Of a stretch of 64,000 nt of DNA, positions 3,488-63,375 are shown one piece after another (within the stretch, counting starts at the first letter, position 1; every line of letters begins with the position of its first letter). This DNA comes from Carcharhinus amblyrhynchos (lineage: Eukaryota). The notes beneath the pieces were generated by a model. That model saw only the letters and a list, made by a program, of their open reading frames with translations. It was not told the origin of the DNA and did no database searches. The translations under genes were made by a program, and so were the position numbers. Where the stretch lies: NCBI GenBank assembly GCA_965287045.1, contig OZ336878.1, positions 48,546,001 through 48,610,000 of the forward strand. Direction: 5' to 3'.

Positions 3488-3872
3488 AATAGAACCTTCT
3501 AAACTCTTAAGGGACTTCTGCCAACACATTATTTTTCTGCAGTTGAATTCTTCTGACATTTCTATTCGAAGGAACAGGAAGAGTAGCAACAGCAAGATGA
3601 AAGATTAAACAGAGATGCTGTTGCAGGAAGACCAAGCAGAAAGAGATAACCCTCTCATCAGAATGTATAAGTGCTCTATTGTCATGCTTACACGTACGGG
3701 AGGGTTATCTCTTTCCATTTGGACTTCCTGCAACAGCATTTCTGTTTAATCCTTCATCTTGCTGTTGCTACTCTTTCTGTTCCTTAGAGTAGAAATGTCA
3801 GAAGAATCCAACTCCTACTGTAGAAAAATAGTGTGTTGGCAGAAGTCCCTTAAGAGTTTAGAAGGTTCTATT
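3488..3872. repeat. Long inverted repeat (~170-bp arms, ~40-nt spacer)
   Basis: 3488 AATAGAACCTTCTAAACTCTTAAGGGACTTCTGCC... is the reverse complement of ...GGCAGAAGTCCCTTAAGAGTTTAGAAGGTTCTATT 3872. Manual alignment shows about 13 substitutions and one 6-nt indel. Confidence 0.95.
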
Positions 3873-4744: not shown

Positions 4745-6297
4745 TACCCCATACGAGGCCAGGTATCTAGATGGGTGGAGAACTGGCTTGCTAAGAGGAG
4801 ACAGAGTAGTAGTGTAGGGGTCCTTTTCTAGCTGGAGGTCTGTCACTAGTGGTGTGCCGCAGGGCTCAGTACTGGGACCTCTTCTCTTTGTAGTATATAT
4901 AAATGACTTTGAAGAGGGAGTAAGTAGTATGATCAACAAATTTGCAGATGACACTAAGATGGCTGGATTGGCGGGCAGTGAGGAGCAGTGCCTGGCAATA
5001 CAACGGGATATTGATAGGCTGGTATATTGGGCAGATATATGGCAAATGGAGTTTAATCCGGATAAATGTGAGGTGATGCATTTTGGCCGGAATAATGTAG
5101 GGGGGAGTTATATGATAAAGGGTAAGCCTATAAAGAGTATAGAAACACAGCAAGTCCTGGGGGTGCAAGTGCACAAGTATTTGAAGGTGGCAGTACAAGT
5201 GGAGAAGGTTGTGAAGAAAGCCTATGGTATGTTAGCCTTTATAGGAAGGGGTATAGAATATAAGAGCTGGAGTCTAATGTTGCAGTTGTATAGAACGTTA
5301 AGCCGCATTTAGAGTACTGCGTCCAGTTCTGGTTGCCTTACTACCGGAAGGACGTGGAGACTCTGGAGAGAGTGCAGAGGAGGTTTACCAGGATGTTGCC
5401 TGGTATGGAAGGACTGGGTTATGAGGAAAGATTGAGCAAATTGGGGCTGTTTTCCCTTGAAAGACGGCGACTGAGGGGGGATCTAATTGAGGTATATAGA
5501 TTATAAAGAGTATAGGTAAACAGAGGTAAGCTATTTCCTATGTTAGAGACACACAGTACGAGGGGCCATGGGCTTAAGGTGAGGGGGGAGAGGTATAACA
5601 CAGATATTAGAGGGAGGTTTTTCACACAGAGGGTAGTGGGGGTATGGAATGCTCTGCCAAGTAAGGTGGTGGAGGCAGGCACGCTGGAGTTGTTTAAGAG
5701 TAACTTAGACAGGCACATGACTGGGTTGGAGATGGGAGGATATAGGAGATTGTTTTAAATAAGGTTCATTAGCATTGGGATGTCCCTGGTAATGTAAAAG
5801 GATGTGGTATGATAATAATGTTTTTCTCTTTTAATTCACAGGTTTTAAGTCGGTCTGCCTTGTTGTCCAACAAGGGGCATACACGCGATGGGTCGTACTT
5901 GGGCTGCTCTTGAATGTTCAAGAGTGGCCTAGTGCTTCATGTCGTTAGTGTGTGCTTAAACTGGACCAGATGCTGGGCAACACGACAGCTCAGTGACTAT
6001 CACTGTTTGCTGTGCAGACACATGGATTTGGGCCAGTGTCTGTGGGAGTTTGTGCATTCTCCCCGTGCTTGCGTGGGTTTTCTCCGGGTGCTCCGGTTTC
6101 CTCCCACACCCCAAAGATGTGCTATTAGGCTGATTGGAAGCAATAAATTGTCCCTTAATTAGTTTCCCTCAATGTGGATTGCCATAAAACAATAGATAAG
6201 GGTCATGGGTGGAGGAGGGGAATGGTAATGTTAAAATGGCGGCGCGGGCTCATTGGGCTGAAAGGCCTGTTTCCCGGGCTGTTTTTGTTCTTTGTTC
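4745..6297 (+). mobile_element. 5'-truncated CR1 LINE (decayed RT C-terminus) with extended structured 3' UTR
   Basis: ORFs 4854-5312 (PQGSVLGPLLF, KFADDTK) and 5540-5758 (FFTQRVVGVWNALP); ends in a GTTCTTTGTTC tail. Same subfamily as 23440-25529. Confidence 0.93.
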
Positions 6298-8662: not shown

Positions 8663-8955
8663 TGGGCAACATGGTGGCACAGTGGGTAGCACTGCTGCCT
8701 CACAGTGTCAGGGTCCCGGGTTCAATTCCCAGCTTGAGTCACTGTATGTTCTCCCCATGTCTGCATGTGTTTCCTCCAGGTATTCTGGTTTCCTCCCATA
8801 GTCTAAAAGATGCACTGGTTAGGCACATTGGCCATGCAAAATTCTCCCTCAATGTATCTGAACAGGCACTGGAGTGCGACTAGAGGTTTTCACAGTAACT
8901 TTATTGCAATGTTAATATATGCCTACTTGTGACACGAATAAATAAACTTAAACTT
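8663..8955 (+). mobile_element. V-SINE with alternative tail
   Basis: tRNA-like head TGGTGGCACAGTGGGTAGCACTGCTGCCTCACAG...GGTTCAATTCCC, then V-domain, then tail TTTCACAGTAACTTTATTGCAATGTTAAT...AATAAATAAACTTAAACTT. Confidence 0.8.
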
Positions 8956-16619: not shown

Positions 16620-18580
16620 TTATTTGATTTGATTTATTATTGTCACATGTATTAACATACAGTGAAAAGTATTGTTTCTTGCGCGCTATACAGGGAAAAC
16701 ATACCATTCATAGAGAAGGAAATAAGAGTGCAGAATTGTAGTGTTACAGTCATAGCTAGGGTGTGCAGAAAGATCAACTTAATGCAAGGTAACTCCATTC
16801 AAAAGTCCGACAGCAGCAGGGAAGAAACTATTCTTGAGTCGGTTGGTACATGACGTCAGACTTTTGTATCTTTTTCCTGAAGGAAGAAGGTGGAAGAGAG
16901 AATGTCCAGGGTGCGTGGGATCCTTAATTATGCTGGCTGCTTTGCCGAGACAGCAGGAAGTGTAGATCGAGTCAATAGATGAGAGGCTAGTTTGCATGAT
17001 GGACTGAGATGCGTTCACGACCTTTTATAGTTCCTTGAGGTCTTGGGCAGAGCAGGAGTCATTACCAAGCTGTGATACAACCAGAAAGAATGCTTCCTGT
17101 AGTGTATCTGTGAAAGTTGGTGAGAGTCGTAGCTGATATGCCAAATTTCCTTAGTCTTCTGAGAAAGTAGAGGTGTTGGTGGGCTTTCTTAACTATAGTG
17201 TTGGCATGGGGGATCCAGGACAGGTTGCTGGTGATCTGGACACCTAAAAACTTGAAGCTCTCGACCCTTTCTACTTCATTGCAACTGATGTAGACAGGGG
17301 CATGTTCTCCTTTACACTTCCTGAAGTCAATGACAATCTCCTTCATTTTGTTGACATTGAGAGAGAGATTATTGTTGCTGCACCAGTCCACCAGATTCTC
17401 TCTCTCATTCCTGTACTCTCGTTAGTGTTTGAGATCTTACCTACTACGGTGGTGTCATTAGCAAACTTGAAAATCAAATTGGAGAGGAATTTTGCCGCAT
17501 TGTTATAGGTGTATAAGGAGTATATTAGGTGGCTGAGAACATAGCCTTGTGGGGCATCGGTGTGGAGGATGATTGTGGAGCAGGTGTTGTTGCCTATCCT
17601 TATTGATTGTGGTCTGAGAGTTAGGAAGTTCAGGATCCAGTCACAGAGGGAAGTGCCGAGGTCGAGGTCATGGAGTTTGGAGAGGAATAGTAGTGTTGAA
17701 GGCTGAGCTGTAGTCAACAAATAGGAGTCTGACATAGATGTCCTTGTTATCCAGATATTCCATGGTTGAGTGCAGGGCCAGGGAAATGGCGTCTGCTGTG
17801 GACCAGTTGTGGTGGTAGGCAAACTGTAGTGGATCTAGGTAGTCCGGGAGGCTGGAATTGACTTGTGCCGTGACTAATCTTTCAAAGCACTTCATAATGA
17901 TGAATGTAACAGATCCACCAGCCGATAGTCATTAAGGCACGCTTTTTGGTTTTTCTTAGAATCCGAGATGATTGTCATCTTCTTGAACCAGTTAGGGACC
18001 TCAGACTGTTGTAAAGAGAGTTTGAAGAGGTCTGTACATACGTCCGCCAGCTGATCCATGCAGGATCTGAGTGCACGCCCAGGCACCCTCATCCGGGCCA
18101 GTTGCTTTCCGTGGGTTGACCTTCAAGAAAGCTGCTCTGACATCTGCAGTGGTGACCCCAGGTACAGGTTCATCCAGGGCTTCCAGGGTGGAAGGCATGC
18201 TCTCGCTGACCTTTTGCTCAAAAAGGGCATAGAATGCATTGAGCTCATCAGGGAGGGGTGCGTTGGAGCCAGCGATTTTACATGCCTTCATCTTGTAGCC
18301 TGTTATGTCTTGCAGGCCTTGCCATATCGGTGGGGGTCAGCGTGACTAGCCTGGGACTCTAGGTTGGTCCATATTGTTTTTCAGCATCTTTGACGGATCT
18401 CCTTAAATTGTGTCTGACTTTCTCGTATAGGTCAGTGTCACCTAACTTGAACACCTCAGACCTGGACTTCAGCAAGCAGTGGATATCCCTGTTTATCCAT
18501 TGTTTCCGGTTGGGGAACATACAGATTTGCTTCTTTGGCACACAGTCTTCTACATACTTACTAATGAAGTCAGTTACTGT
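16620..18580 (-). mobile_element. Rex1/Babar non-LTR retrotransposon, 5'-truncated and frameshifted
   Basis: Minus-strand peptides [45 protein letters not shown] and KKAHQHLYFLRRLRKFG; ATCAA-repeat tail at ~16620. Confidence 0.9.
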
Positions 18581-22224: not shown

Positions 22225-23439
22225 TACAGTAGAGAAGGGGTTGGACGGCAGCAAAGTAATAATGATGCAAGGGAGTCAGTACTCGGGTAGCATACATATC
22301 AGAAAGGTCAAGTGAATGAAGGGAAGCAATCTGGAAAGCCACTGTCAAATTCAGTGGGTGGGTATTTGAGTACGGCTGGATTTATCATATTCTGGTGAAA
22401 ATGGAAAATGTTGACCCTTGGCCCAGGAAGCCAAAAGGATTACAAAAAGGTCAAAACTACTCTAGCTGCAGAAACACTGGCGCTATTAGAAGTGATAGGT
22501 ATGGTAGTGTACTTACTCTTGAATTCCAAAGGAAATCCCATACAGGCAGAATTCTGAGAAAGGTTTACCCTATGAAGGTTCATTCAACAGCAGTGTCACT
22601 GAAAAAACGTTGAGTGTTAACCTTACTAGTATAAAGGAAATGTTGGAATAAAAAGAGATCTCTAAAATAAAACTTGTTAATGCAAGTCACCAAATCTGGA
22701 TGAGCACTTAGATCCTGCACGGACCAGATGGCGCGGGTATCCGCAGGCATCCTTAATCTCTCTTTACACCCTGTCTGCTTCAGGAAGATGACCATCATCC
22801 CAATACCAAAAAAAAACGCCAGCAGCGTGCCATAGTGAAAAATATCTAGTGGCTCTGACATCCATTATGAAGTGCTTCAAAAGATTAGTCATAGCACGAA
22901 TCAATTTTAGCCTCCCAGATTGACTGGATCCAATAGTTTGTCTATCGCTGACTCAGGTTCACAGCAGATGCATGGCCCTGCACTTAACCCTGGAACACCT
23001 AGACAGCAAAGACACCCATGTCAGACTCCTATTTATTGACTATAGCTCAGAATTCCTACCATTATTCCTACAGAACTCACCTCCAAGCTCTGTGGCCTTG
23101 AGCTCAGCTCCTCCCTTTGTGACTGAATCCTAGATTTCCTAACCCACAGACTGCAATCAGTAAGGATAGGCAACAAGACCTACTCCATGATCATCTTCAA
23201 CATCATTGTTCCACAGGGCTGTATCCTCAGCCCCTTACTATCCTTATATACCTACAACTGTGGGGCCAAATTCCCCTCCAACTCAATTTGCTGATGAACC
23301 CCCGCAGTGGGTCAGATCTCAAAAATGATGAGATAGAGAATCCTTAACTGGTGCAGTGACAATAATCTCTCCCTCAATAACAAAACAAAGGAGATAGTCA
23401 TCAACTTCAGGGAACCTAGTGGAGAAAATGTCCCTGTCT

Positions 23440-25529
23440 AGGTCTGTTAGAGGGAGCTGAGGATCAGCTGCAGGAAATATCTATTACGAGGGAGGAAGTG
23501 CTAGGGCTTTTAGGTAGCGTAAGGACGGATAAAGCTCCGGGGCCTGATGGTATTTATCCCAGGCTGCTTAGGGAGGTGAAAGATGAAATTGCTGGGCCTC
23601 TGGCGCAAATCTTTGTCTCTTTTTTGGACACAGGTGAGGTCCCAGAAGACTGGAGGGTGGCAAATGTGGTACCGCTGTTCAGAAAAGGTAGTAGGGATAA
23701 CCCTGGGAATTATAGGCTGGTGAGTTTGACATCGGTGGTAGGGAAATTAATGGAAAAAGTACTTAGGGGTAGGATGTATGAGCATTTGGAGCGTTGCGGT
23801 CTGATTGGGGATACGCAACATGGCTTTGTTAGAGGGAGGTCTTGCCTTACGAATCTGGTGGAATTCTTTGAGGAGGTGACAAAAACGGTTGACGATGGGC
23901 AAGCCGTTGATGTCATCTATATGGATTTCAGTAAGGCGTTTGACAAAGTCCCTCATGGTAGGCTGGTAGAAAAGGTTAAGGCGCATGGGATACGGGGTCA
24001 GGTAGCTAGGTGGATTGAGAACTGGCTGGGCAATAGGAGACAGAGGGTAGTTGTGGAGGGGACTTTGTCCAGCTGGAGGCCAGTGACCAGTGGTGTGCCG
24101 CAGGGCTCGGTACTGGGACCTCTCCTCTTTGTAGTCTACATAAATGACTTGGAAGATAGCGTAGGTGGTGTGATCAGCAAGTTTGCTGATGACACCAAGA
24201 TGGCAGGGTTGGCGGGTACTGAAGTGGATTGTCAGGTGATACAACAGGATATAGATAGGTTGGTGCATTGGGCAGATAGGTGGCAGATGGAATTTAATCC
24301 TGACAAATGCAAGGTGATGCATTTTGGAAGGAATAATGTAGAGAGGAGCTATGTGATTAAAGGTAGACAAATTAGGAGTATAGAAACACAGAGGGACCTG
24401 GGAGTGCAGGTTCACAAATCCATGAAGGTTGTGACACAAGTGGAGAATGTTGTCAGGAAGGCTTATGGAATGCTAGCCTTTATAGGAAGAGGTACAGAGT
24501 TTAAAAGCTGCCGTCTAATGCTTCAGTTGTATAGAACGTTGGTTAGACCGCATTTGGAGTACTGCGTCCAGTTCTGGTCACCTTACTACCGGAAGGACGT
24601 GGAGGTTCTGGAAAGGGTGCAGAGGAGGTTTACCAGGATGTTGCCTGGCATGGAGGGGTTGGGTTACGAGGAAAGGTTGGAGAAACTGGGACTGTTCTCT
24701 TTGGAAAGACGGAGATTGAGGGGTGACATGATAGAGGTATATAAGATACTGAAGGGAATAGACAGGGTCAATAGTGAGAGACTGCTCCCTAGATTGGTTA
24801 CGAATACAAGAGGACATGATTTAAGGGTGAGGGGGGAGAGGTATAATTTGGATATGAGAGGAAGGTTCTTTACGCAGAGAGTAGTGGGGGTATGGAACGC
24901 GCTACCGAGTGGGGTGGTGGAGGCGGGAACGTTGGACTCGTTTAAGGTTCAGTTAGATAGGCACATGAGTGAAACGAGGATGGAGGGTTATGGTAGGGGT
25001 TATTGAATAAGGGTTAGAACCTCGGGAGACACCGGAAAGGCAGGCTTGTGATTAACGTTTTTGTCTTTTCACTCCGCAGGTGGAGGTCCACCTCGTTGTC
25101 AAACGAGGGGCATGCACACGGTGGGTCGTGCGTGGGCTGCTCCTGGAGGTTCTGGGAGTGGCCTAGTACTTCGTGTCGGTGTGTGTGCTTGATCCTGGAC
25201 CGGTAGACGGGCGCCGCAACAGCTCAGTGACTAGCACTGCTAGCTGTGCAGATACATGGATTTGGGCCTGTGTCTGTGGGAGTTTGTGCATTCTCCCTGT
25301 GGTTGCGTGGGTTTCCTCCGGGCGCTCCGGTTTCCTCCCACACCCCAAAGATATGCTCTTAGGCTGATTGGTTTTACCAAATTGACACTATTCTCCCCTG
25401 AATCTGGCTAAGTCAGGGGTTCTATTTGTAGATACGCAGGGTAGAATAGGTGTAGGGTGATGCGGCGGCGCGGGCTTGTTGGGCCGAAGGGCCTGTTTCC
25501 CGTGCTGGGTTGTTCTTTGTTCTTTGTTC
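23440..25529 (+). mobile_element. 5'-truncated young CR1 LINE with extended structured 3' UTR
   Basis: Uninterrupted 502-aa RT ORF, then a ~520-nt 3' UTR ending in GTTCTTTGTTCTTTGTTC. Confidence 0.95.
23498..25006 (+). CDS. CR1 ORF2 reverse transcriptase (N-terminally truncated, open to the natural stop)
   Basis: KAPGPDGIYPRLL, NYRLVSLTS, QHGF, MDFSKAFDKV, GVPQGSVLGP, FADD, YCVQFWSP, FFTQRVVGVWNALP. Confidence 0.9.
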   Translation: MLGLLGSVRTDKAPGPDGIYPRLLREVKDEIAGPLAQIFVSFLDTGEVPEDWRVANVVPLFRKGSRDNPGNYRLVSLTSVVGKLMEKVLRGRMYEHLERCGLIGDTQHGFVRGRSCLTNLVEFFEEVTKTVDDGQAVDVIYMDFSKAFDKVPHGRLVEKVKAHGIRGQVARWIENWLGNRRQRVVVEGTLSSWRPVTSGVPQGSVLGPLLFVVYINDLEDSVGGVISKFADDTKMAGLAGTEVDCQVIQQDIDRLVHWADRWQMEFNPDKCKVMHFGRNNVERSYVIKGRQIRSIETQRDLGVQVHKSMKVVTQVENVVRKAYGMLAFIGRGTEFKSCRLMLQLYRTLVRPHLEYCVQFWSPYYRKDVEVLERVQRRFTRMLPGMEGLGYEERLEKLGLFSLERRRLRGDMIEVYKILKGIDRVNSERLLPRLVTNTRGHDLRVRGERYNLDMRGRFFTQRVVGVWNALPSGVVEAGTLDSFKVQLDRHMSETRMEGYGRGY

Positions 25530-25611
25530 AATGGGGATGAAGTGGAAATGATCGAGAGCTTCAAGGTATCCAGGTCACCAACGACCTGATCTAGATCACC
25601 AACAACGTCTA

Positions 25612-25935
25612 GGGTGCCAATATGTCAGCGATTAGCACTGTTACCTCACAGCACCAGGGGCCCGGGTTGAATTCCAGCCAAGGGTGACTGTCTGTGTGGA
25701 GTTTGCGCATTTTCCCCATGTCTGCTTGGGTTTCCTCCAGGTGCTCCAGTTTCCTCCCACAGTCCAAAGATGTGTGGGTTAGGTTGACTGGCCATGGTAA
25801 ATTGATTTTAGTACCAGGGGACTAGGAGGGTAAATACAGGGAGTTACAAAGATAGGGCCTGGGTGGGATTGTTGTCAGTGCAGGCTCGATAGGCTGAATT
25901 GCCTCCTTCTGCATTGTAGGGATTCTATGATTCTG
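25612..25935 (+). mobile_element. HE1-type V-SINE
   Basis: Head TTAGCACTGTTACCTCACAGCACCAGGGGCCCGGGTTGAATTCC, then V-domain, then tail GCCTCCTTCTGCATTGTAGGGATTCTATGATTCT. Confidence 0.85.
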
Positions 25936-26170
25936 ACCTGGGCCCTCCATGCTGACACTATAGTTAAGAAAGCCCACCAATGCCTCTACTTTCTCAGAAG
26001 ACGAAGGAAATTTGGCATGTCCATTACAACTCTCTCTAACTTTTACAGATGGACAATAGAAAGCATTCTTTCTGGTTGTATCACAGGTTGGTATGGCTCC
26101 TGCTCTGTCCAAGGCCGCACAAAAATACAAAGGGTCATGAATGAAGCTCAGTCCATAATCAAACCAGCCT

Positions 26171-26497
26171 CCCTTAGGAGTCCTTAGGACTAGAGGGCAC
26201 AGCCTCAAGATAAAGGGGGGGGCGGTTTAGAACGGAGTTGAGGAGGAACTTCTTCACTCAAAGGGTGGTGAATCTCGGGAATTCTCTGCCCATTGAAGTG
26301 GTGGAGTCTGCCTCGCTCAATATTTTTAAGACGTGGGTTGATAGGTTTTTGATAGGCAAGGGGATTAAGGGTTATGGGGAGAGGGCGGGAATGTGGAACT
26401 GAGCCACGACAGATCAGCCATGATCTTATTGAATGGCGGGGCAGGCTTGAGGGGTTAGATGGCCTACTCCTGCTCCTATTTCTTATGTTCTTATGTT
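26171..26497 (+). mobile_element. Very short 3' fragment of the young CR1 family
   Basis: Close match to 27095-27405; TTATGTTC tail; short TSD (C)TCCC in the host Rex1. Confidence 0.9.
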
Positions 26498-26650
26498 CTC
26501 CCATCCACTGACTCAGTCTATACTTCCCACTGCCTTGGAAAAGGAGCCAGCCTAATCAAGGACGCCACACACCCCAGATATACTCTCTTCCCATCTTCTT
26601 CCATCGGGGAAAAAGGATTCAAAAGGTCTGAGGATACATACCAACCAATT

Positions 26651-27405
26651 GGCGAAAAACTGCAGCAGGCGACGGTGCAGAGGGACCTCGGGGTCCTTGT
26701 GCATGAGTCGCAAAAACCCAGCCTGCAGGTGCAGCAGGTGGTCAGGAAAGCTAATGGGATGCTGGCCTTCATAGCGAGGGGGATTGAATACAAAAGTAGG
26801 GAGGTCTTGCTGCAGCTGTATAGGGCATTGGTGAGACCGCAGCTGGAGTACTGTGTGCAGTTTTGGTCGCCGCACTTACGCAAGGATATTTTGGCCTTGG
26901 AGGGAGTGCAGAGGAGGTTTACTAGGCTGATGCCGGAGTTGAGGGGGGTGAGCTATGAGGAGAGGCTGAATAAACTAGGCTTGTACTCGTTGGAGTTTAG
27001 AAGAATGAGGGGAGATCTCATTGAGACGTACAAGATGATGAATGGGATGGATAGGATAGAGGTGGAGAGACTCTTCCCGCTCAGAAAGGACAGTAGGACT
27101 AGGGGGCACAGCCTCAAGATAAAGGGGGGGCGGTTTAGAACGGAGTTGAGGAGGAACTTCTTCGCTCAAAGGGTGGTGAATCTCTGGAATTCTCTGCCCG
27201 TTGAAGCGGTGGAGGCTGCCTCGCTAAATATTTTTAAGACGCGGGTTGATGGGTTTTTGATAAGCGAGGGGATTAAGGGTTATGGGGAGAGGGTGGGAAA
27301 GTGGAACTGAGCCATGACAGATCAGCCATGATCTTATTGAATGGCGGGGCAGGCTCGAAGGGCTAGATGGCCTACTCCTGCTCCTATTTCTTATGTTCTT
27401 ATGTT
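26651..27405 (+). mobile_element. 5'-truncated young CR1 LINE
   Basis: Open RT C-terminus (QRDLGVLV...FFAQRVVNLWNSLP...GKWN*); (TTATGTTC)n tail; TSD CAATT on both sides. Confidence 0.93.
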
Positions 27406-28518
27406 CAATTCAAGAACAGCTTCTTCCTTGCTGCCATCAGACTTTTGAATGGACCTACCTTATATTAAATTGATCTTTCTCTACACCCTAGCTTTGACTG
27501 TAACATTACATTCTGCACTCTTTCCTTTCCTTCTCTATATACAATATGCTTTGCATAGTGTGCAAGAAACAGTACTTTTCATTGTATATTGACAATAATA
27601 AATCAAATCCAATAACAGACATGCCTGTTCCAACAAATTGTTGGAGGTCCTAGAAGAGGAATGACTTGTGACGTGATGAGCTGCAAGACTATGATAAGCT
27701 ATAAAAAAAAAATGGAAAACCAATCTTTTTCTTTATGAATTACAAAGGGGAAAATTTAATAATGGCTAGTTGGTTATGTTCTTAAAGATACATAGGTGAT
27801 GGGCAACATTTGATCAAGATTACATATGAAGAGTCTGTTGGGATACTGGGCTAATAATTAGGAGGCAGAGTTCTTTAATATTGCATTCTGCAAATAAACT
27901 TCCTAACAAGGAAAAGATCTGCATTTTGTTTTATTCTTCATCCTCTGGCTTGAATCCAAATAATATCACCAGTGGTAACAGTACAATAGTAGAGTTAGAA
28001 AACATGTAGCCTGCAATCCTCAGTACTAACTCTGGATCCCATGAGATTTCACAAGCCAGGTCAAACACAGACAATGAACTTTGTTCTTATTATTACCCAC
28101 CACCCTCAATCAGATGCTGAATCAATACTCTTTCATGCTGAACATCACTTGGAAGGAACATTGAATTTAGCAAGGACACAGTATGTGGGGATTTCATTTT
28201 CCATTACCACAATGGCTTGGTAGCACCTCCTGATCACGCTGCCTGGTTCTGGTGGGAGCAGCACCACTAAGGTTTGTTTGTCTGCCTCTGACTTCACAGT
28301 CCTTGTTGCGAAGTTCTACCTTCACACTGAGAGCATCCTCCATAGTGTTCTGTGGCACTATACTAAATCGGATAAATTGAGAACATATATTGCAGTTCAA
28401 AAACCAGGCATCCTTGAAGTTTTGTGGGGCTTCATCTGCAGCAGAACTGCATTCCAGCACATGGTCAAGCAAATCCTCCAATCTGCTGCTGTGGAACAGA
28501 TCAGAAATTCTAAGGTAT

Positions 28519-34011: not shown

Positions 34012-34328
34012 GGGTGGCACTGTGGCCCAGTGGTTAGCACTGCTGCCTCAAGTGCCAGGGACCTGGATTCAATTCCAGCCTCGGTCACTGTCTGTACAGA
34101 GTTTGCACATTCTCCCTGTGTTTGCATGGGTTTCCTCCAGGTTCTTTGGTTTCTTCCCACAATCCAAAGATGTGGGTTAGGTTGATTGGCGATGCTAAAT
34201 TGACCCTAGTGTCAGGGCTTTAGCAGGGTTAATATGTGGGCTTACGGGAATAGAGCTTGGATGGAATTGTGGTCGGTGCAGACTCGACGGGTGGGACGGT
34301 CTCCTTCTGCACTGTCGGGATTCTATGC
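34012..34328 (+). mobile_element. HE1-type V-SINE
   Basis: Head GGGTGGCACTGTGGCCCAGTGGTTAGCACTGCTGCC, then V-domain, then tail CTCCTTCTGCACTGTCGGGATTCTATG. Confidence 0.85.
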
Positions 34329-34831
34329 AAAACATGGCAGAAGTGTTTTAGTCATGAAGCCTACTTTTTTAAAATGTCAAGCACAAACTGCATATCCTTC
34401 CAGAACCACAGGTCGCAATGTAAATAGTTATGACTGATCAGATATTTAATTACAATGCTGTTTCCTGGTTCCAATACTGCAGAGCCAGCAAACATCAACA
34501 ACCTCTCCCCAACTTGGTTAAATTATTCCTCTGCCCTAAATAATGAACTTGGATTTGACTGCCCCCATAACCATTTGAGGTTGATGAGTTTTGTTTTTAA
34601 ATTATAGAACAGAGTTTCGACAGATCACATTGGGTTAACCACACAAGATCCAGTCATACACAAAATTATTCTTGATTCTGTACATAGATTAAGCTCTGCC
34701 CAGGGAGTTACTTGGCATTAAGCATGAAATACTTAGTGCAGGAGCACATAAGGAGCCAGTACTGTGACTGAATGAGGCACTGCAACATTTGGAATAGTTT
34801 TTTTGTTTAGGTGATATACATGCAAGGCAAT

Positions 34832-36365
34832 CAAAGAATCACAGAATTGGTAGAGTGCAGAAGGAGGCCATTTGTCCCATCGTGTCTGCACCACCTCTCC
34901 AAATGAGCATTGTGACTTAGTGCCATTCTCCTGTCTTTGCCCCATACCCCTGCACATTGTTTCCATTCAAGGAATAATCTAACGCCCTCTCGAATGCCAT
35001 CAACTAACGCCTCAATTGAGCCTATCTCCACCACACTTCCAGGCAAAGCATTTCAGACCTGAACCACCAGTTGAGTGAAAATGTTTTTTCTCACATCACA
35101 GTTGCTTCATGCAAATCTCTTCCGCACTCCCTCCAATGCATTTGTATCTTTCCTTTGGTGTGGCACCCAGAGCTGTGCAATACTGCAGCTGAGACCTAAC
35201 TAGTGTACCTCCTTGCTCTTGGACTCTATGCCCCTATTAATAAATATTACATGCTTTCTTAAAGGCTCTCTCCACCTGTCCTGTCAGCTTCACTGACCTA
35301 TACACAAATACACACAGCTCCTTCTGCTCTTGCTCCCCTAAAAATGTTGCCCTTATTTTGTATCTACATGTTCTTCCTACCGAAATGTAACACCTCATAC
35401 TTTTCCGCATTGAACATCATCTGCCATCTAACTGCCCACTCCAACAGCTTGCCTATATGGACTTTTGAAGTTCTACACTATCCTCTTTATAGTTTAGAAT
35501 ATGTCCAATTTGTGTGATCCACAAACTTTAAAATTGTCAGCTGTATATCAAGTTTAGATCATTAATATATAATCAGATAAAGCAAGGGTCCCAATACTGA
35601 TCCCTGGGAAATACCACTATAAATCTTCCCCCAGTCCAAAAAATATCCATTGAACATTACAACAATCTGCTTCCTTTTATTCAGCCCATTTTATATCTTC
35701 ATTGCTACAGTCCCTTTTATTCCACAAGCTATAACTTTTCTCAAATCTGTTGTGTGGCACGGTATTGAATGCCTTCTTCAAGTCCATGTACACCTCATTA
35801 GCACCATTACCCTCATCAATCCTTTCTGCTACTTCCTCAAAAATCTCCAGCCAGTTAGTTAAATGCGATTTCCCCTTTAGAAATCCATTAGGCTTTTCCT
35901 AATCAACTCACATTTTTCCTTGTAACTACTAATTCTATCCTGAATAATTGTTTCTAAAAACTTGTCCACCATTGATGTTAAACTGACTGGCTGTAATTGC
36001 TGGGGCTAACCTTACAACCTTTTTGAACAAGGGCATAACATTTGCAATTCTCCAATCTTCTGGCACCTCCTCTGGAGTTGAGAGAAGACTATAAGATTAT
36101 GGCCAGCGTACCTGCAATTTCCATTTTCACTTCCTTCAATATCGTTGGATGCAACTCATCCAGTCCCACTGCATTGTCAACTTTCAGTACTGACAGTCAA
36201 TTTAACCCCTCTTCCTTAAAAACTTTGAACCCTTCTAGTGACAGAATTTACTCTATCCTGGGTAGCATTTAGTTCCCTGGTAAAGATGGACACAAAGTTT
36301 CAATTTAATACCTCAGCCATTTCCCCTTGCATCCATGTATAAGTACTCTTTTAGGTCCCTAATCA
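34832..36365 (-). mobile_element. Old CR1 LINE RT region, heavily decayed
   Basis: Reverse-strand remnants of the PQGSVLGP (~35590-35620), D..KAF (~35770) and PLFKKG (~36020) motifs; tail at ~34835. Confidence 0.75.
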
Positions 36366-39465: not shown

Positions 39466-39700
39466 CTTTTATTTATTTGTGTCACCAGTAGGCTTACATT
39501 AACAGCACTGCTGTGAAAATTCCCTAGTCACCACATTCTGGCAACAGTTTAGGTACACTGAGGGAGAATTTAGCATGGCCAATCCACCTAACCAGCATGT
39601 CTTTTTGATTATGGATGGAAACCAGAGCACCTGGAGGAAACCCACACAGACATGGGGAGAATATGCAGACTCCACGCAATCAGTCACCCAAGCCAGTCTG
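39466..39700 (-). mobile_element. V-SINE with alternative tail
   Basis: Reverse complement of the 8663-8955 type (V-domain GGAAACCAGAGCACCTGGAGGAAACCCAC). Confidence 0.8.
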
Positions 39701-46950: not shown

Positions 46951-48890
46951 ATAAGAACATAAGAACATAAGAAATAGGAGCAGGAGTAGGCCATCTAGCC
47001 CTTCGAGCCTGCCCCGCCATTCAATAAGATCATGGCTGATCTGTTGTGGCTCAGTTCCACTTTCCCGCCCTCTCCCCATAACCCTTAATCCCCTCTCTTA
47101 TCAAGAACCCATCAACCCGCTTCTTAAAAATATTTAGCGAGGCAGCCTCCACCACTTCAACGGGCAGAGAATTCCAGAGATTCACCACCCTTTGAGTGAA
47201 GAAGTTCCTCCCCAACTCCGTTCTAAACCGCCTCCCCTTTATCTTGAGGCTGTGCCCCCTAGTCCTACTGTCTTTTTTGAGCGGGAAGAGTCTCTCCACC
47301 TCTATCCTATCCATCCCATTCATCATCTTATACGTCTCAATGAGATCTCCCCTCATTCTTCTAAACTCTAACTAGTACAAGCCTAGTTTATTCAGCCTCT
47401 CCTCATAGCTCAATCCCCTCAACTCCGGTATCAGCCTAGTAAACCTCCTCTGCACTCCCTCCAGGGCCAAAATATCCTTGCGCAGGTGCGGCGCCCAAAA
47501 CTGCACACAGTACTCCAGCTGCGGCCTCACCAATGCCCTATACAGCTGCAGCAAGACCTCCCTACTTTTATATTCAATCCCCCTCGCTATGAAGGCCAGC
47601 ATCCCATTCGCCTTCCTGACCACCTGCTGCACCTGCAAGCTGGGTTTTTGCGACTCATGCACAAGGACCCCGAGGTCCCTCTGCACCGTCGCCTGCTGCA
47701 GTTTTTCGCCACGTAAGTAATAGTCCTTCCTACCATTCTTCCTACCAAAGTGGACCACCTCACACTTGCCAACATTAAATTCCATTTGCCATTTCCTGGC
47801 CCATTCGCCCAGCTTATCTAGATCCTTCTGCAGACTCTCCACACCCTCCGCACAATTTGCCTTTCCCCCAATCTTGGTGTCATCAGCAAATTTCGACACC
47901 CTGCACTCGGTTCCCTCCTCCAGATCATCTATATAAATGGTAAATAGCTGAGGCCCCAGCACCGACCCCTGGGGCACCCCACTAGTCACCAACCGCCAAT
48001 CCGAATAGCATCCATTGACCCCCACTCTCTGCCTCCTATTTGACAACCAATCCTCTATCCACGCTAACACCCTACCCCCAACTCCATGTCCCCTGACCTT
48101 CTGCAATAACCTCTTGTGAGGTACCTTGTCAAACGCCTTCTGAAAATCCAGAAAGACCACATCCACCGGCTCTCCTCTATCCACTGCCCTAGACACATCC
48201 TCATAGAACTCCAGTAAATTTGTCAGACACGACTTCCCTTTAATGAAACCGTGTTGCGTCCGCCCTATCAAGCAATTCCCTTCAAGATGCCTCGCAATTT
48301 CCTCCTCAATGACGGATTCTAACATTTTACCTACCACAGACGTTAAACTAACCGGCCTGTAATTCCCCGCCTTTTGCCTGGCACCCTTCTTAAACAACGG
48401 CGTAACATTAGCCGTTTTCCAATCTTCCGGCACTTCCCCGGAATCCAGCGACGTCTGGAAAATAACCACCAAGGCATCCACTATAACCTCCGCCATTTCT
48501 TTCAGAACCCTCGGATGCATTCCATCCGGTCCTGGGGACTTGTCCACAATCAGCCCCTCCAGTCTGTCGAGCACCACCTCTCTAGTAACAGTAATGTCAT
48601 TAAGACCCTCCATTCCTACCACCTTTCCATCTCTAACACCCGGCAAATTATTCACGTCCTCCTCCGTGAAGACAGAAACAAAAAAGTTATTCAAGACCTT
48701 AGCCATATCCCCATCCCCTACCACTAGCTCCCCTTTCTCATCCTCTAAAGGACCAACGTTCACCCTAGCCAGCCTCTTCCTTTTTATATATTTATAAAAA
48801 CTCTTGCTATCCTTTTTTATATTAAGTGCTAGCCCAGCCTCATAGCTTCTCCTACCCTCCTTTATCAACTTCTTTGTCAATCTTTGTTGA
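46951..48890 (-). mobile_element. 5'-truncated young CR1 LINE
   Basis: 502-aa RT ORF 47372-48880 plus its continuation 47051-47356, separated by one premature stop; (ATAAGAAC)n tail at 46951. Confidence 0.95.
47051..48880 (-). pseudogene. CR1 ORF2 RT with a single nonsense mutation at ~47372
   Basis: Plus strand reads AACTAGTACAAG here but AACGAGTACAAG in the sister copy at ~61645, converting a Ser codon to a stop. Confidence 0.85.
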
Positions 48891-58800: not shown

Positions 58801-61226
58801 AGAAAAAAAGGTATAGCAAAGACACAAAAACACCCACACAGACCAAACCCACAAACACAGCATTGCTGCCCCTCCCTCCAGCACACATCCTCCCAAACAG
58901 GACGTCTGTGCCTCCAACACTTCCTTACCCAGACGCCTTCATAGCACTCCGCATGGGACACGGTCTCCACCTCCATTCCCATCATGGTCACAGGTGCTAT
59001 AATCTAAAACGGTCTGTAGAAAAACCAAACACTTAACACTTAACCTAACAGTCCAAAACTCATTACACTTTCTTGGCTGACAATTCAATCCAGGTATAGC
59101 ATGTAAGTTTTTTAAAAAAAAACAAATATCAGATTACGTTCGCTGTGTGGTCACCCGATTCAAAAGGCTGCTTCACAAATTTCATCACCGCTGCTGGATC
59201 CATGAACTTGTGCTCGGTTCCATTGTTGAGAGTAATCTCAAGCAGGCTGGAAAGCAAAGCCCAAACTGACCTCAGGACAGTCATGCAGAAGTCGTTTGAC
59301 ATCAGCGAACGCTGCCCTTCTCCTTGCAGTCACCAGGGTAAAATCTGGAAATATGAACAGCTTATTTTCCTGGTACCTCAGAATGGTAGCCTGTGGTGCT
59401 TGCCACAGGATTCTGTCTCATGCTGAGATGTAATGTACTCGTGTAATAATACGCCGAGGAGCTTCTCCCAGTCTGGGCTTTGCCCATAACACTATGTGTG
59501 CAATCCAGAAGTGGCTCATCCTCCAGTTCCAACACATTCTTCAACAGTCGGGTGACAAAGTCAGTGATATTTGGGCCCTCGATTGCCTCCGGAAGGCCTA
59601 TCAGACAGATATTATTTCATCTTTGGCTATCTTCCATCTCATCACATTTCTCCCTTAGGGACTTAACTTCCGATGTCAAATGAGTAACTTGGCTCTTCAT
59701 CTAGGAGATACTGTTTCCACTAAATGCCTCCGAGTCCTCAAGCTCCTTCAAACAGTTTTCATGGGCTTCGGTGACAAATGGGAGAGATTTAACAGATGAT
59801 CTGAGCTCCTCTCTCAGTTTTTCTATCTTGGCCTGCAACTTAATGGCCCACTGGTCCAACTTACTGTCCAATCTTTGCATGGCCTCCATAATAGCTTCCC
59901 CTGTCCTTTCATTCAGCATGCTCTGTTCAGGGATTCTTCCAGGACAGCATAGTGGCCCCCCCCCCCCACCCCCACCACTTCCGTTCCAGTGGTCCCATTC
60001 TTCGATTTTGGTTTGCCTCCTGCCGTTTTGCCAGTACCAGCATCTGTGGGCTGACCCATTTCCTCCAGCCTGGAGCGCTATTTCTTCGTCCACATATCAA
60101 GCTGTCTCGCTGCTCAATCTACCAGAGTTTTTATGTGGATTGCTTTTCACCTTACCTCATCCTTAACTGGGCAAACAGATGCAGCAAAGGATTCCCAGCC
60201 AAGCTGCAAGTTGCAACTGTTCTCCATCACTTTAATTCACCCTTGGTTGGGTGAAAAAAGAAACAGCAGAGTCTCCAGGTTGATCTGACAGTTGCAGTTT
60301 TTATGACACAGGAGTTCTTCCCTGGGCTGCTACCCACCCAAACAAATTCACACTTGACTGAGTGAAAAAGTTACAAGATCATTCAAGCTGAAGGCCAAGT
60401 CCCAACATATCTTTCAGAGCTCAAGCTGCAAAAAAAATCCAAAAGTAGAAATGGCAGCTTGCAATTTGCAACAGGACCTCAGTGACTCCTGCTTCCCACT
60501 TTAATTCACCCTTTCTGGGGTGAAAAAAGAACAGAGAGTTTGCAGACAGAGCTGCAATCCATAGCTCCTCCCTTGCTGAGCACACACAGTAAATTCCAAC
60601 CAGCAGGAAGGAATCTAAAAATAACCTTTCCAGCTAGACTTTCAAAATCCTCTCTTTGCAACTGCCCTCCAGGTATGTTTAAAGCTTGCTTGATGTACAT
60701 TAACTTCTCTCCAGATCTCAGCAGTCAGATTTCAAGGATCTTGCCACCTGTGGATCATGCTTTGTCTCACACCAGCACCATCTTTGATTCCCCCTGTTTC
60801 TGTAAATGTCCTAAATTCCCAACTGGTAAATGGGGTTCCATTATCCATCACTAAAACTTTTGGGATTCCATGGGTACTAAAAGATTGTCGTAGTTTCTCT
60901 ATCATGTTTTGTGATATGGAGGAGGTCATCTGGTGCACCTCCATCCATTTAGAATGGGCATCAATTAACAAAAACATGGAGCTCATAAATAGTGCTGCAA
61001 TGCTCACACATATTCTAAACCATGGCTTTCCTGGCCATTCCCAGGAATGTAGGGAAGCTACAGGTGGTGCCTCTTGGTTTTCCTGGCACATTCAACATGT
61101 TGTTACTGTATTCTCTATGTTCCTATAGAGACATAGCTTCTTGCTACCATCTTCATTTTTGATACACCTGGATGGCCGTTCTGCAGTTCTTGAAGGACAG
61201 GCCTTTGAGCAGGACGAGGGGTAACT

Positions 61227-62353
61227 AAGAACATAAGAACATAAGAAATAGGAGCAGGAGTAGGCCATCTGGCCCTTCGAGCCTGCCCCGCCATTCAATA
61301 AGATCATGGCTGATCTGTCGTGGCTCAGTTCCACTTTCCGGCCCTCTCCCCATAACCCTTAATCCCCTCTCTTATCAAAAACCCATCAACCCGCTTCTTG
61401 AAAATATTTAGCGAGGCAGCCTCCACCACTTCAATGGGTAGAGAATTCCAGAGATTCACCACCCTTTGAGTGAAGAAGTTCCTCCTCAACTCTGTTTTAA
61501 AACGCCCCCCCTTTATCTTGAGGCTGTGCCCCCTAGTCCTACTGTCTTTTTTCAGTGGGAAGAGTCTCTCCACCTCTATCCTATCCATCCCATTCATCAT
61601 CTTATATGTCTCAATGAGATCTCCCCTCATTCTTCTAAACTCCAACGAGTACAAGCCTAGTTTATTCAGCCTCTCCTCATAGTTCAACCCCCTCAACTCC
61701 GGTATCAGCCTAGTAAACCTCCTCTGCACTCCCTCCAAGGCCAAAATATCTTTGCGCAGGTGCGGCGCCCAAAACTGCACACACTACTCCAGCTGCGGCC
61801 TCACCAATGCCCTATACAGCTGCAGCAAGACCTCCCTACTTTTATATTCAATCCCCTTCGCTATGAAGGCCAGCATCCCATTCACCTTCCTGACCACCTG
61901 CTGCACCTGCAAGCTGGGTTTTTGCGACTCATGCACAAGGACCCCCAGGTCCCTCTGCACCGTCACCTGCTGTTTTTCGCCACGTAAGTAATAGTCCTTC
62001 CTACCATTCTTCCTACCAAAGTGGACCACCTCACACTTGCCAACATTAAATTCCATTTGCCATTTCCTGGCCCATTCGCCCAGCCTATCTAGATCCTTCT
62101 GCAGACTCTCCACACCCTCCACACAATTTGCCGTTCCCCCAATCTTGGTGTCATCCGCAAATTTCGACACCCTACACTCGGTTCCCTCCCCCAGATCATC
62201 TATATAAATGGTAAAAAGCTGAGGCCCCAGCACCGACCCCTGGGGCACTCCACTAGTCACCATCCGCCAATCCGAATAGCACCCGTTGACCCCCACTCTC
62301 TGCCTCCTATTTGACAACCAATCCTCTATCCACGCTAACACCCTACCCCCAAC
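61227..62353 (-). mobile_element. 5'-truncated young CR1 LINE inserted in Gypsy pol
   Basis: Close match to 46951-48085; (ATAAGAAC)n tail; short TSD AACT(A). Confidence 0.93.
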
Positions 62354-63145
62354 TACCCAGGCTTCCCCCAGGATAATGCCATCTTCTATGCCTAATTCCA
62401 GGCATTTTGTCACATACAACTTCAAGTCTTGTGCCAGACATGCCTGCTTTCCTCCATTTAAGATCATGTAGTTTAGTTTTGCCAGCTTGGAGATGTTTTG
62501 AGGCCAAGCTTTTATTTGTTTTGCCAAAATTGACAAAGTGCCCATAAAATTTAATGTTATTATTACTTCATCCATTTTTGATGGTGACGGAAAGCTTCTG
62601 GGCAAAGGTAAGCAACTCAGAATAAGCAACTCAGGACATGTACGTCGGCAACTTGTGTCCGTGGTCTATGCCCCATACCCATAAGTGCCTAATAATAGTG
62701 CCCATCACTGTCTTCGAGCTGATGCTATAACAGGGATCATTTACTGCTTGGAAAAAGGACTGTGGTCTGTTACGATTGTACACATGCATACACAGGTATA
62801 CGATACATGTATTGATGGGATTTCTTCACTGTGAAGATCATTGCCAAAACCCTCTTTTTCTATTTATGCATGCCTTTTTCCGCATCGGCTAGTGTCCTTG
62901 AGGCATATATAATCGGGCGCTCCATCCCATTGTTCCATCGATGCGATAATACTGTACCTATCCCGTAAAGAGAAACATCACATTATGACCAATGGTCTTT
63001 CTGGGTTGAAATGGGTCAATACGTTGTCTGACTGCAGTTTGTGTTTTATCCTCACAAGAGTATCCTCCTGTGATTCTTACCATGCCCTGTTCTGATGTTT
63101 TTAACAACGTATGTAGGAAGTAAGGTTGCCAAGTTTGGAATGAAT

Positions 63146-63375
63146 CAGTGGCACAGTGGTTAGCACTGCTGCCTCACAGCACAAGGGACCCAGGTTTGAT
63201 TCTGTCTGTGTGGAGTTTGCACGTTCTCCCCGTGTCTGTGTGTCCTTAGGGTGCTTTGGTTTCCTCTCAAAATCTGAAAGACGTGCTGATTAGGTGCATT
63301 GATCCGAACAGGCGCTGAAGAGTGGTGATTAGGGAAATTTCATTGCAGTATTAATGTAAGCCTTATGTATGACAG
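63146..63375 (+). mobile_element. V-SINE (alternative tail) inserted in Gypsy pol
   Basis: GTGGCACAGTGGTTAGCACTGCTGCCTCACAGC...TCTGTGTGGAGTTTGCACGTTCTCCCCGTGTC...TTCATTGCAGTATTAATGTAAGCC. Confidence 0.85.

Follow-up and report, generated by a model that had tools for sequence, protein, structure and literature searches.

A V-SINE core in the 3' untranslated region of a CR1 retrotransposon lineage of the shark Carcharhinus amblyrhynchos

Results

Two CR1 insertions with a common composite 3' untranslated region

The window analyzed here is a stretch of 64,000 nucleotides of the Carcharhinus amblyrhynchos genome (assembly GCA_965287045.1, contig OZ336878.1, forward strand positions 48,546,001 to 48,610,000), and it includes two insertions, copies A and B, of a LINE lineage that we take to be CR1 (Table 1). 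In both copies, the ORF2 stop is followed, in the same order, by a linker, a pyrimidine tract ending in CAG/G, a folded domain, a tRNA-like head, a V-domain, a second linker and the CR1 tail; this 3' untranslated region (UTR) is approximately 520 nt long. The protein matches of ORF2 are reverse transcriptases (RTs) of birds, turtles and chondrichthyans with the PF00078 domain, the nearest named fish proteins being those of Chiloscyllium (64%) and Mobula (54%), and the RT domain clusters with those of CR1s. As in CR1-clade LINEs, both copies end with a hairpin and a short tandem repeat, without poly(A). Between A and B, codon positions 1 and 2 are identical at 578 of 669 sites (86%) compared to 208 of 333 for position 3, which indicates that ORF2 remained under purifying selection; with its open ORF2, the lineage appears to be of the autonomous type.

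Table 1. Coordinates of the features of copies A and B within the window
Feature	Position	Strand	Remarks
Copy A, 5'-truncated CR1 insertion	23447-25529	+	ORF2 part through CR1 tail
Copy A, ORF2 3' part (RT and C-terminus)	23447-25006	+	519 open codons; homologs with PF00078, best 69% identity
Copy A, ORF2 stop TGA	25004-25006	+	
Copy A, linker 1, unconstrained	25007-25056	+	24/53 identical to B over 25004-25056
Copy A, pyrimidine tract ending CAG/G, 3' splice-site-like	25057-25079	+	17/25 identical to B over 25057-25081
Copy A, folded domain: closing helix, short hairpin, long hairpin	25085-25201	+	117 nt, z -5.7
Copy A, V-SINE tRNA-derived head: 5' end and A box present, B box deleted	25209-25268	+	46/50 identical to B over 25219-25268
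Copy A, V-domain	25269-25372	+	96/104 identical to B
Copy A, linker 2, unconstrained	25373-25463	+	42/88 identical to B
Copy A, CR1 3' tail hairpin and (TTCTTTG)n end	25464-25529	+	56/62 identical to B
Copy B, CR1 insertion, decayed	4749-6297	+	ORF2 part through CR1 tail
Copy B, ORF2 3' part, decayed, four indels	4749-5758	+	Stop-equivalent TAA 5756-5758
Copy B, pyrimidine tract ending CAG/G	5821-5841	+	
Copy B, folded domain	5852-5967	+	z -6.6
Copy B, V-SINE head without B box	5975-6034	+	
Copy B, V-domain	6035-6137	+	
Copy B, ~45 nt resembling post-stop stretch 5756-5799	6193-6236	+	Possible capture scar; 27/4000 shuffles as good
Copy B, CR1 3' tail, (TTCTTTG)n end	6237-6297	+	

The original prediction held that the two copies are independent insertions with the SINE-like segment in the same position, that this segment belongs to the master element, and that the differing flanks argue against segmental duplication. 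The present results bear out all three points. The 5' truncation points of A and B differ, their flanks are unrelated, and copy A sits within an older repeat, a few bases of which were lost, with no target site duplication (TSD); the uninterrupted form of this repeat is found near 17283. A and B form one clade in the analyses of ORF2 DNA (99/98), ORF2 protein (100/100; the badly aligned, long-branch copy at 57k was left out of the inference), tail (100/99) and V-domain (100/98), and a B-box deletion present in both, unequal conservation along the UTR and the contigs of two public sequencing runs, all described below, likewise assign the segment to the master. V-SINEs are abundant, with six free V-domains in 64 kb, so that two chance SINE insertions at one place in two LINE copies might be envisaged, as might a segmental duplication; both accounts are refuted by the flanks and truncation points, by the B-box deletion and derived V characters common to the two copies, and by the family-level coverage in two other runs, and we assign them practically no probability. 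The V-SINE core is inherited within a coding CR1 lineage, which we propose to have diverged into two or more subfamilies, including an A-like and a B-like one.

The older repeat, which is LINE-like and presumably related to Rex1, belongs to a nested cluster (22696-26499), where it is interrupted not only by copy A but also by a free V-SINE (25617-25932) and a CR1 3' end (26185-26499); its second copy lies at 17283-18082 on the minus strand. A young family of CR1s with short UTRs, 93-96% identical to each other, is represented at 26185-26499, 26650-27406, 46952-48604 (minus strand) and 61226-62354 (minus strand), the copy at 47-48 kb yielding a single unbroken match of 510 amino acids. Elsewhere in the window, a long imperfect palindrome at ~3560-3860 is probably a MITE-like inverted repeat, and the segment 3617-3736 shows a sub-threshold match to a miRNA family (43.8 bits versus 130).

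A segment derived from a V-SINE

The two motifs originally quoted for the tRNA-like head and the V-domain are indeed found in both copies, followed by the linker and the CR1 tail; CAGCTCAGTGACTAGCACTG begins at position 25220 in copy A and, with one change, at 5986 in copy B. The V-domain is also, as predicted, common to the LINE copies and the free V-SINEs of the window, with 73-84% identity between the latter and the V region of copy A (E = 9e-21 to 1e-6); the reference for this comparison is the free copies in the window. A profile search, with a profile made from these same copies, detected eight V-domains in the window, including the six free ones. When the head was compared to five free-SINE heads, shuffled sequences scored as well in 0-2 of 5000 cases for each comparison with copy A and in 1-72 of 5000 cases for copy B.

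The SINE-derived part starts at the natural 5' end of the SINE (approximately 25209 in A and 5975 in B), about 7 nt downstream of the folded domain. Scored against what we take to be the A-box and B-box consensus sequences, the LINE-borne head retains an A box with 2 mismatches, and its best B-box match has 4-5 mismatches in A and B, versus 0-2 in the five free SINEs. This difference is due to a deletion of approximately 20 nt that takes away the B box and constitutes most of the "remodelling" that had been predicted for the head. With the B box deleted, the insert is unable to launch a Pol III SINE, and because it is also joined to ORF2, the segment is derived from a V-SINE without being one itself. 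In both copies it is attached to the ORF2 unit and does not form an independent non-coding unit. ARAGORN predicted no tRNA. TSDs around the SINE part, which had been suggested as a check, failed to materialize, in that no direct repeat is common to A and B, at a divergence that leaves such a search little power.

The free V-SINEs of the window, presumably members of the HE1 family, fall into two kinds (8664-8945, 39468-39692 on the minus strand and 63140-63305 versus 1508-1810, 25617-25932 and 34012-34327); three have a CR1-type tail, and the other three end differently, two of them with an A-rich 3' part. Taken together with the LINE, these two kinds indicate that the V core occurs with three or more different 3' ends in this genome.

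Constraint on the head and V-domain

Along the UTR, the identity between A and B runs low-high-low-high-low-high, the conserved blocks including the folded domain (96 of 117 positions) in addition to the head, V-domain and tail, and the linkers being divergent (Table 1). This alternation indicates constraint rather than segmental duplication or a single recent swap. The head and V-domain combined are identical at 142 of 154 positions, compared to 53 of 95 four-fold degenerate sites (56%) in ORF2 (p = 2e-11), and are conserved at least as well as codon positions 1 and 2 (p = 0.06). The corresponding JC distances are 0.082 for the head and V-domain and 0.668 for the four-fold sites, that is, the segment appears to be constrained within the LINE and to evolve about eight times slower than neutral sites, as estimated from two copies, A and B. 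This constraint, which did not figure in the original prediction, is the strongest point of the analysis. The V cores of A and B share 95% identity, compared to 76-86% between these two and the V cores of the free SINEs, so that the free SINEs were not a converting donor. We consider it likely that selection acts at the level of the element.

RNA structure of the untranslated region

The folded domain is more stable than shuffled sequences in both copies (Table 1), and its folding energy is -66.5 kcal/mol on the plus strand versus -34.8 kcal/mol on the minus strand. Among its 12 changed pairs, 9 are preserved in B, two of these via a double change, and 3 are broken versus 7.0 expected (P = 0.029). 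This domain accordingly resembles a strand-specific three-way-junction RNA with compensatory changes, and its structural support is better than that of the V segment. The search of Rfam with the folded domain yielded no credible family (best E 0.3-8.5, far below the gathering scores). Derivation from 5S, 7SL, an IRES, a ribozyme or a snoRNA has no support in Rfam.

The pattern of substitutions bears on the possibility that, without any selection, recombination or gene conversion recently swapped modules of the 3' UTR between the A-like and B-like subfamilies. Exchange of modules is common in SINEs, according to the accessible part of PMC5786205, and the comparison here involves two copies only. 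However, one swap would leave an even block of identity instead of the alternation that we observe, the changes in the folded domain preserve pairing, and the V-domains of the free SINEs are far less similar to A and B than these are to each other. We therefore regard such an exchange as very unlikely.

The pyrimidine tract with CAG/G follows a branch-point-like motif and is kept inside an otherwise divergent linker; the majority variants in two public runs (X5 and X17) render it more T-rich. No spliced joint at CAG/G was found among the 15 joints listed of 22; that X17 derives from RNA is a guess, and rare forms drop out of contigs. An intron that is spliced routinely would not persist in a retroelement; sense-strand intronic copies of the tract could act as splice traps.

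The head and V-domain show no sign of structure-specific selection (z -2.0; P = 0.16 for pair keeping): 47 of the 51 unpaired and 75 of the 84 paired positions are conserved, and the plus and minus strands fold alike. The most conserved block of the V-domain is a hairpin with an internal loop at 25307-25341 in A, which folds in the same way in B; in the available portion of PMC4758252, a V hairpin of this sort is described for invertebrate V-SINEs and not seen in those of fish. Because primary sequence rather than pairing is conserved, the head and V-domain might, after the same history of capture, have been kept as a factor-binding or enhancer-like DNA element or one that serves the host, and regulatory roles for such domains have been proposed in print, as far as the accessible parts of PMC5804259 and PMC4824008 go. 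Set against this are the clearly strand-specific RNA character of the adjoining folded domain and the fact that the conservation sits in replicating masters and, hence, must pay off for the element. Such a DNA-level function seems to us rather unlikely, and we lean slightly towards action of the segment at the RNA rather than the DNA level.

Relatives of the lineage and direction of transfer

The distance from the ORF2-end motif to the tail hairpin is 490 nt in copy A versus 42-77 nt in six other CR1s of the window, the motif pattern having failed on two of nine copies, B and C. None of the other window CR1s contains a V-domain in the 3' UTR. Among 92 distant CR1-like loci recovered with ORF2 (12 and 80 kept of 12 and 185 confirmed, none from viral contigs), 37 have at least 450 nt downstream of ORF2, and none shows a V or folded-domain match; a free copy of the folded domain was found neither in the window nor in these 92 loci. 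A and B are nested among CR1s whose window copies are without V, and V-SINEs have been reported in cnidarians, molluscs, arthropods and vertebrates (in the accessible parts of PMC4824008 and PMC4758252). The lack of the cassette in other CR1s combined with the presence of V-SINEs back to cnidarians points to capture from SINE to LINE, and the tRNA remnant in the LINE implies the same direction. On these comparisons of sequences, we hold transfer in this direction to be very likely, and there is good reason to believe that the A/B lineage experienced a single capture.

The opposite, namely that this CR1 lineage gave rise to the V-domain, was the other option offered by the original prediction, and LINE parts are known as SINE bodies (PMC5786205, in the part available). 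It is largely refuted by the head remnant with its A box, by the nested position of A and B among V-less CR1s combined with the failure of the V profile to match any of the 92 loci, and by the spread of V-SINEs across animal phyla, and we consider it highly improbable.

The A/B tail falls together with the tails of two short-UTR CR1s, located at 32.6k and 57.3k, with a support (90/94) that stays below the strict threshold. Its identity to the three free SINE tails is 42-51%, which suggests that the free V-SINEs of the window probably have a partner other than the A/B LINE. A decayed CR1 at 34825-36241 (minus strand), with a tail 76-79% identical over 39-55 nt to those of the CR1-tailed free V-SINEs, is a candidate relative of their partner LINE.

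In copy B, approximately 45 nt that follow the stop recur before the tail (Table 1); in copy A, shuffled sequences do as well in 3504 of 4000 cases and the corresponding match lacks significance, and this was one of several tests. The repeat in B matches the trace expected from capture, by either of the routes considered below, of a SINE that already bore the 3' end of this same LINE, and is taken as a lead only.

The arrangement in public sequence data

The stretch is present in 20 of 24 listed sequencing runs, from 12 studies, with half of the words or more in 14 runs, none of the 20 being recorded as RNA; four runs (X5, X17, X21 and X22) were examined for coverage. The contigs of X5 and X17 cover 29 of 30 bins from ORF2 to the tail, with pieces that bridge ORF2 and the UTR (X17 record 4, X5 record 13), the head and V-domain (X5 record 15), and the V-domain and linker 2 (X17 record 8); among the pieces listed, none bridges the junction of the folded domain and the head. 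The depth of linker 1 in X5 (92,545) is like that of the least covered ORF2 bins (80,956-100,584), and in X17 it is about half of that of these least covered bins (512 versus 881-1247). No joint connecting the end of ORF2 straight to the tail, with the cassette skipped, was found among the 15 listed of 22 (highest depth 38), and B-like loose ends are common before the tail (181 contigs in X5 and 37 in X17). Because copy number cannot be read from summed contig depth, these data indicate that the arrangement is general and do not give the fraction of carriers. X21 and X22 do not contain the family; they contribute 41 and 19 reads, respectively, almost all of which fall on the V core and are flanked by foreign sequence.

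The depth at the head is approximately seven times that at linker 1, which also fits a free non-autonomous derivative; in both X5 and X17, the increase proceeds across the folded domain. Conceivably, the folded domain, partial tRNA head, V-domain and tail first formed such a non-autonomous element, where the B box was lost, and the LINE took up all of it in one step, free copies perhaps homogenizing the LINE copies thereafter. Composite SINE heads consisting of 5S and partial tRNA are described in the accessible part of PMC4824008, and the post-stop duplicate in B suggests that borrowing of the tail took place at a time when the UTR was short. Yet, no free folded domain was found in the window or the 92 loci, no small RNA in Rfam fits, the junction coincides with the SINE's own 5' end, and conservation combined with 5' truncation accounts for the depth equally well. 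An intermediate of this kind is unlikely in our assessment.

In wider searches, DNA patterns of the LINE-borne head or ORF2 had no match in viral or metagenome contigs, the plasmid search produced no match, and the V pattern matched one stretch (L093) in genome contigs. Animal CR1 fragments turned up inside prokaryote assemblies or under bacterial names (L001-L012; P0018, P0080), apparently by contamination, and the ORF2 protein matches of 66-69% labelled as bacterial come from contigs shorter than 2 kb, probably contamination as well.

Discussion

The explanation that we favor, and consider probable overall, is that one ancestral CR1 master gained a V-SINE, from its natural 5' end to the V-domain, downstream of the ORF2 stop and upstream of a CR1 tail of the master's own type, and that the captured part was retained under selection in the 3' UTR. 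The join might have arisen by a template switch, whereby the reverse transcriptase copied the SINE RNA to its 5' end and then jumped to the LINE RNA, or by insertion of the SINE followed by read-through; neither route predicts a surviving TSD. Of the originally predicted recapture of a SINE by template switching, the direction and the retention stand, and the mechanism is about evenly balanced between the two routes. The B box would have been lost subsequently, so that the master would no longer spawn a competing Pol III SINE, and the lineage would have remained autonomous while keeping the head and V-domain, implying a benefit to the LINE. Most likely, the segment would help the LINE RNA in cis, by making it more stable or by aiding the formation of the ORF2p particle close to the tail, as it would in SINEs. 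A bolder reading, which we put forward tentatively and give somewhat less than an even chance, is that the LINE domesticated its own parasite: with the B box deleted and the head and V-domain constrained, the V-domain would be a portable RNA module that enhances retrotransposition without Pol III, and the upstream three-way junction would be a second, previously undescribed LINE RNA element.

Several known systems resemble this one in part. The HE1 family of V-SINEs from sharks and rays has the partner LINE HER1 (PMC3747384, in the part available). Like the LINE segment, HE1 elements combine a tRNA-derived 5' end with an A box, a V-domain and a CR1-type tail; unlike them, the segment lies inside an ORF2-coding LINE, lacks a B box and is followed by a tail that groups with short-UTR CR1s. 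The trait of the HE1/HER1 pair, a LINE tail nearly identical to that of the V-SINE, is absent here, the A and B tails having been compared to the free SINEs of the window. With other CR1-clade LINEs of cartilaginous fish, A and B share an RT-coding ORF2, 5' truncation, a tail hairpin, short terminal repeats and the lack of TSDs, and they differ from the other window CR1s in the long UTR with its folded domain and V-SINE core. MER6/MER6A, a non-coding Mariner MITE that carries a V-domain (PMC6887750, accessible part), is another case of a V-domain that moved from a V-SINE into a different transposon and spread with it; however, MER6/MER6A is an inactive, non-autonomous DNA transposon, whereas the carrier described here is a retroelement that codes for protein and moves through RNA, in which the domain is under measurable constraint. 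SINEs with bodies derived from the 5' parts of RTE and Vingi LINEs (PMC5786205, in the part available) also reflect traffic of modules, but from LINE to SINE, in contrast to the SINE-to-LINE transfer proposed for A and B.

As of 2016, no LINE had been found to contain such a domain, according to the available portion of PMC5804259, and a comparison of Repbase SINEs with LINEs detected nothing similar to the conserved SINE bodies (PMC5786205, the accessible text; the accessible part of its supplement holds no V/CR1 pairing). In the part of the PMC13343379 supplement that was available, with long cells only partly covered, the three motifs are absent, and the available text of that paper mentions a UTR once, for the 5' end. 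In the later open literature, no report of a V-bearing LINE was found; Repbase and Dfam were outside this scope, and a consensus may exist there without comment. Capture of a V-domain by another transposon is already known (PMC6887750, as far as it was accessible), and a V-SINE core under constraint in a LINE 3' UTR appears to be new, no report of one having been found.

The conservation of SINE central domains across animal phyla is a standing question on which the V-bearing CR1 has a bearing, because a V-domain that is constrained in a coding LINE after the loss of the B box is separated from Pol III transcription. V-bearing and short-UTR CR1s in one genome provide a natural comparison, and in a self-mobilizing LINE the domain could be deleted and mobility measured in cis, which opens the role of the V-domain to experimental test. 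On the practical side, repeat annotation may report a copy of this kind as two elements, one LINE and one SINE, and thus inflate the counts of V-SINEs in sharks. If true, an enhancing module that is independent of Pol III would explain the survival of the V-domain across animal phyla.
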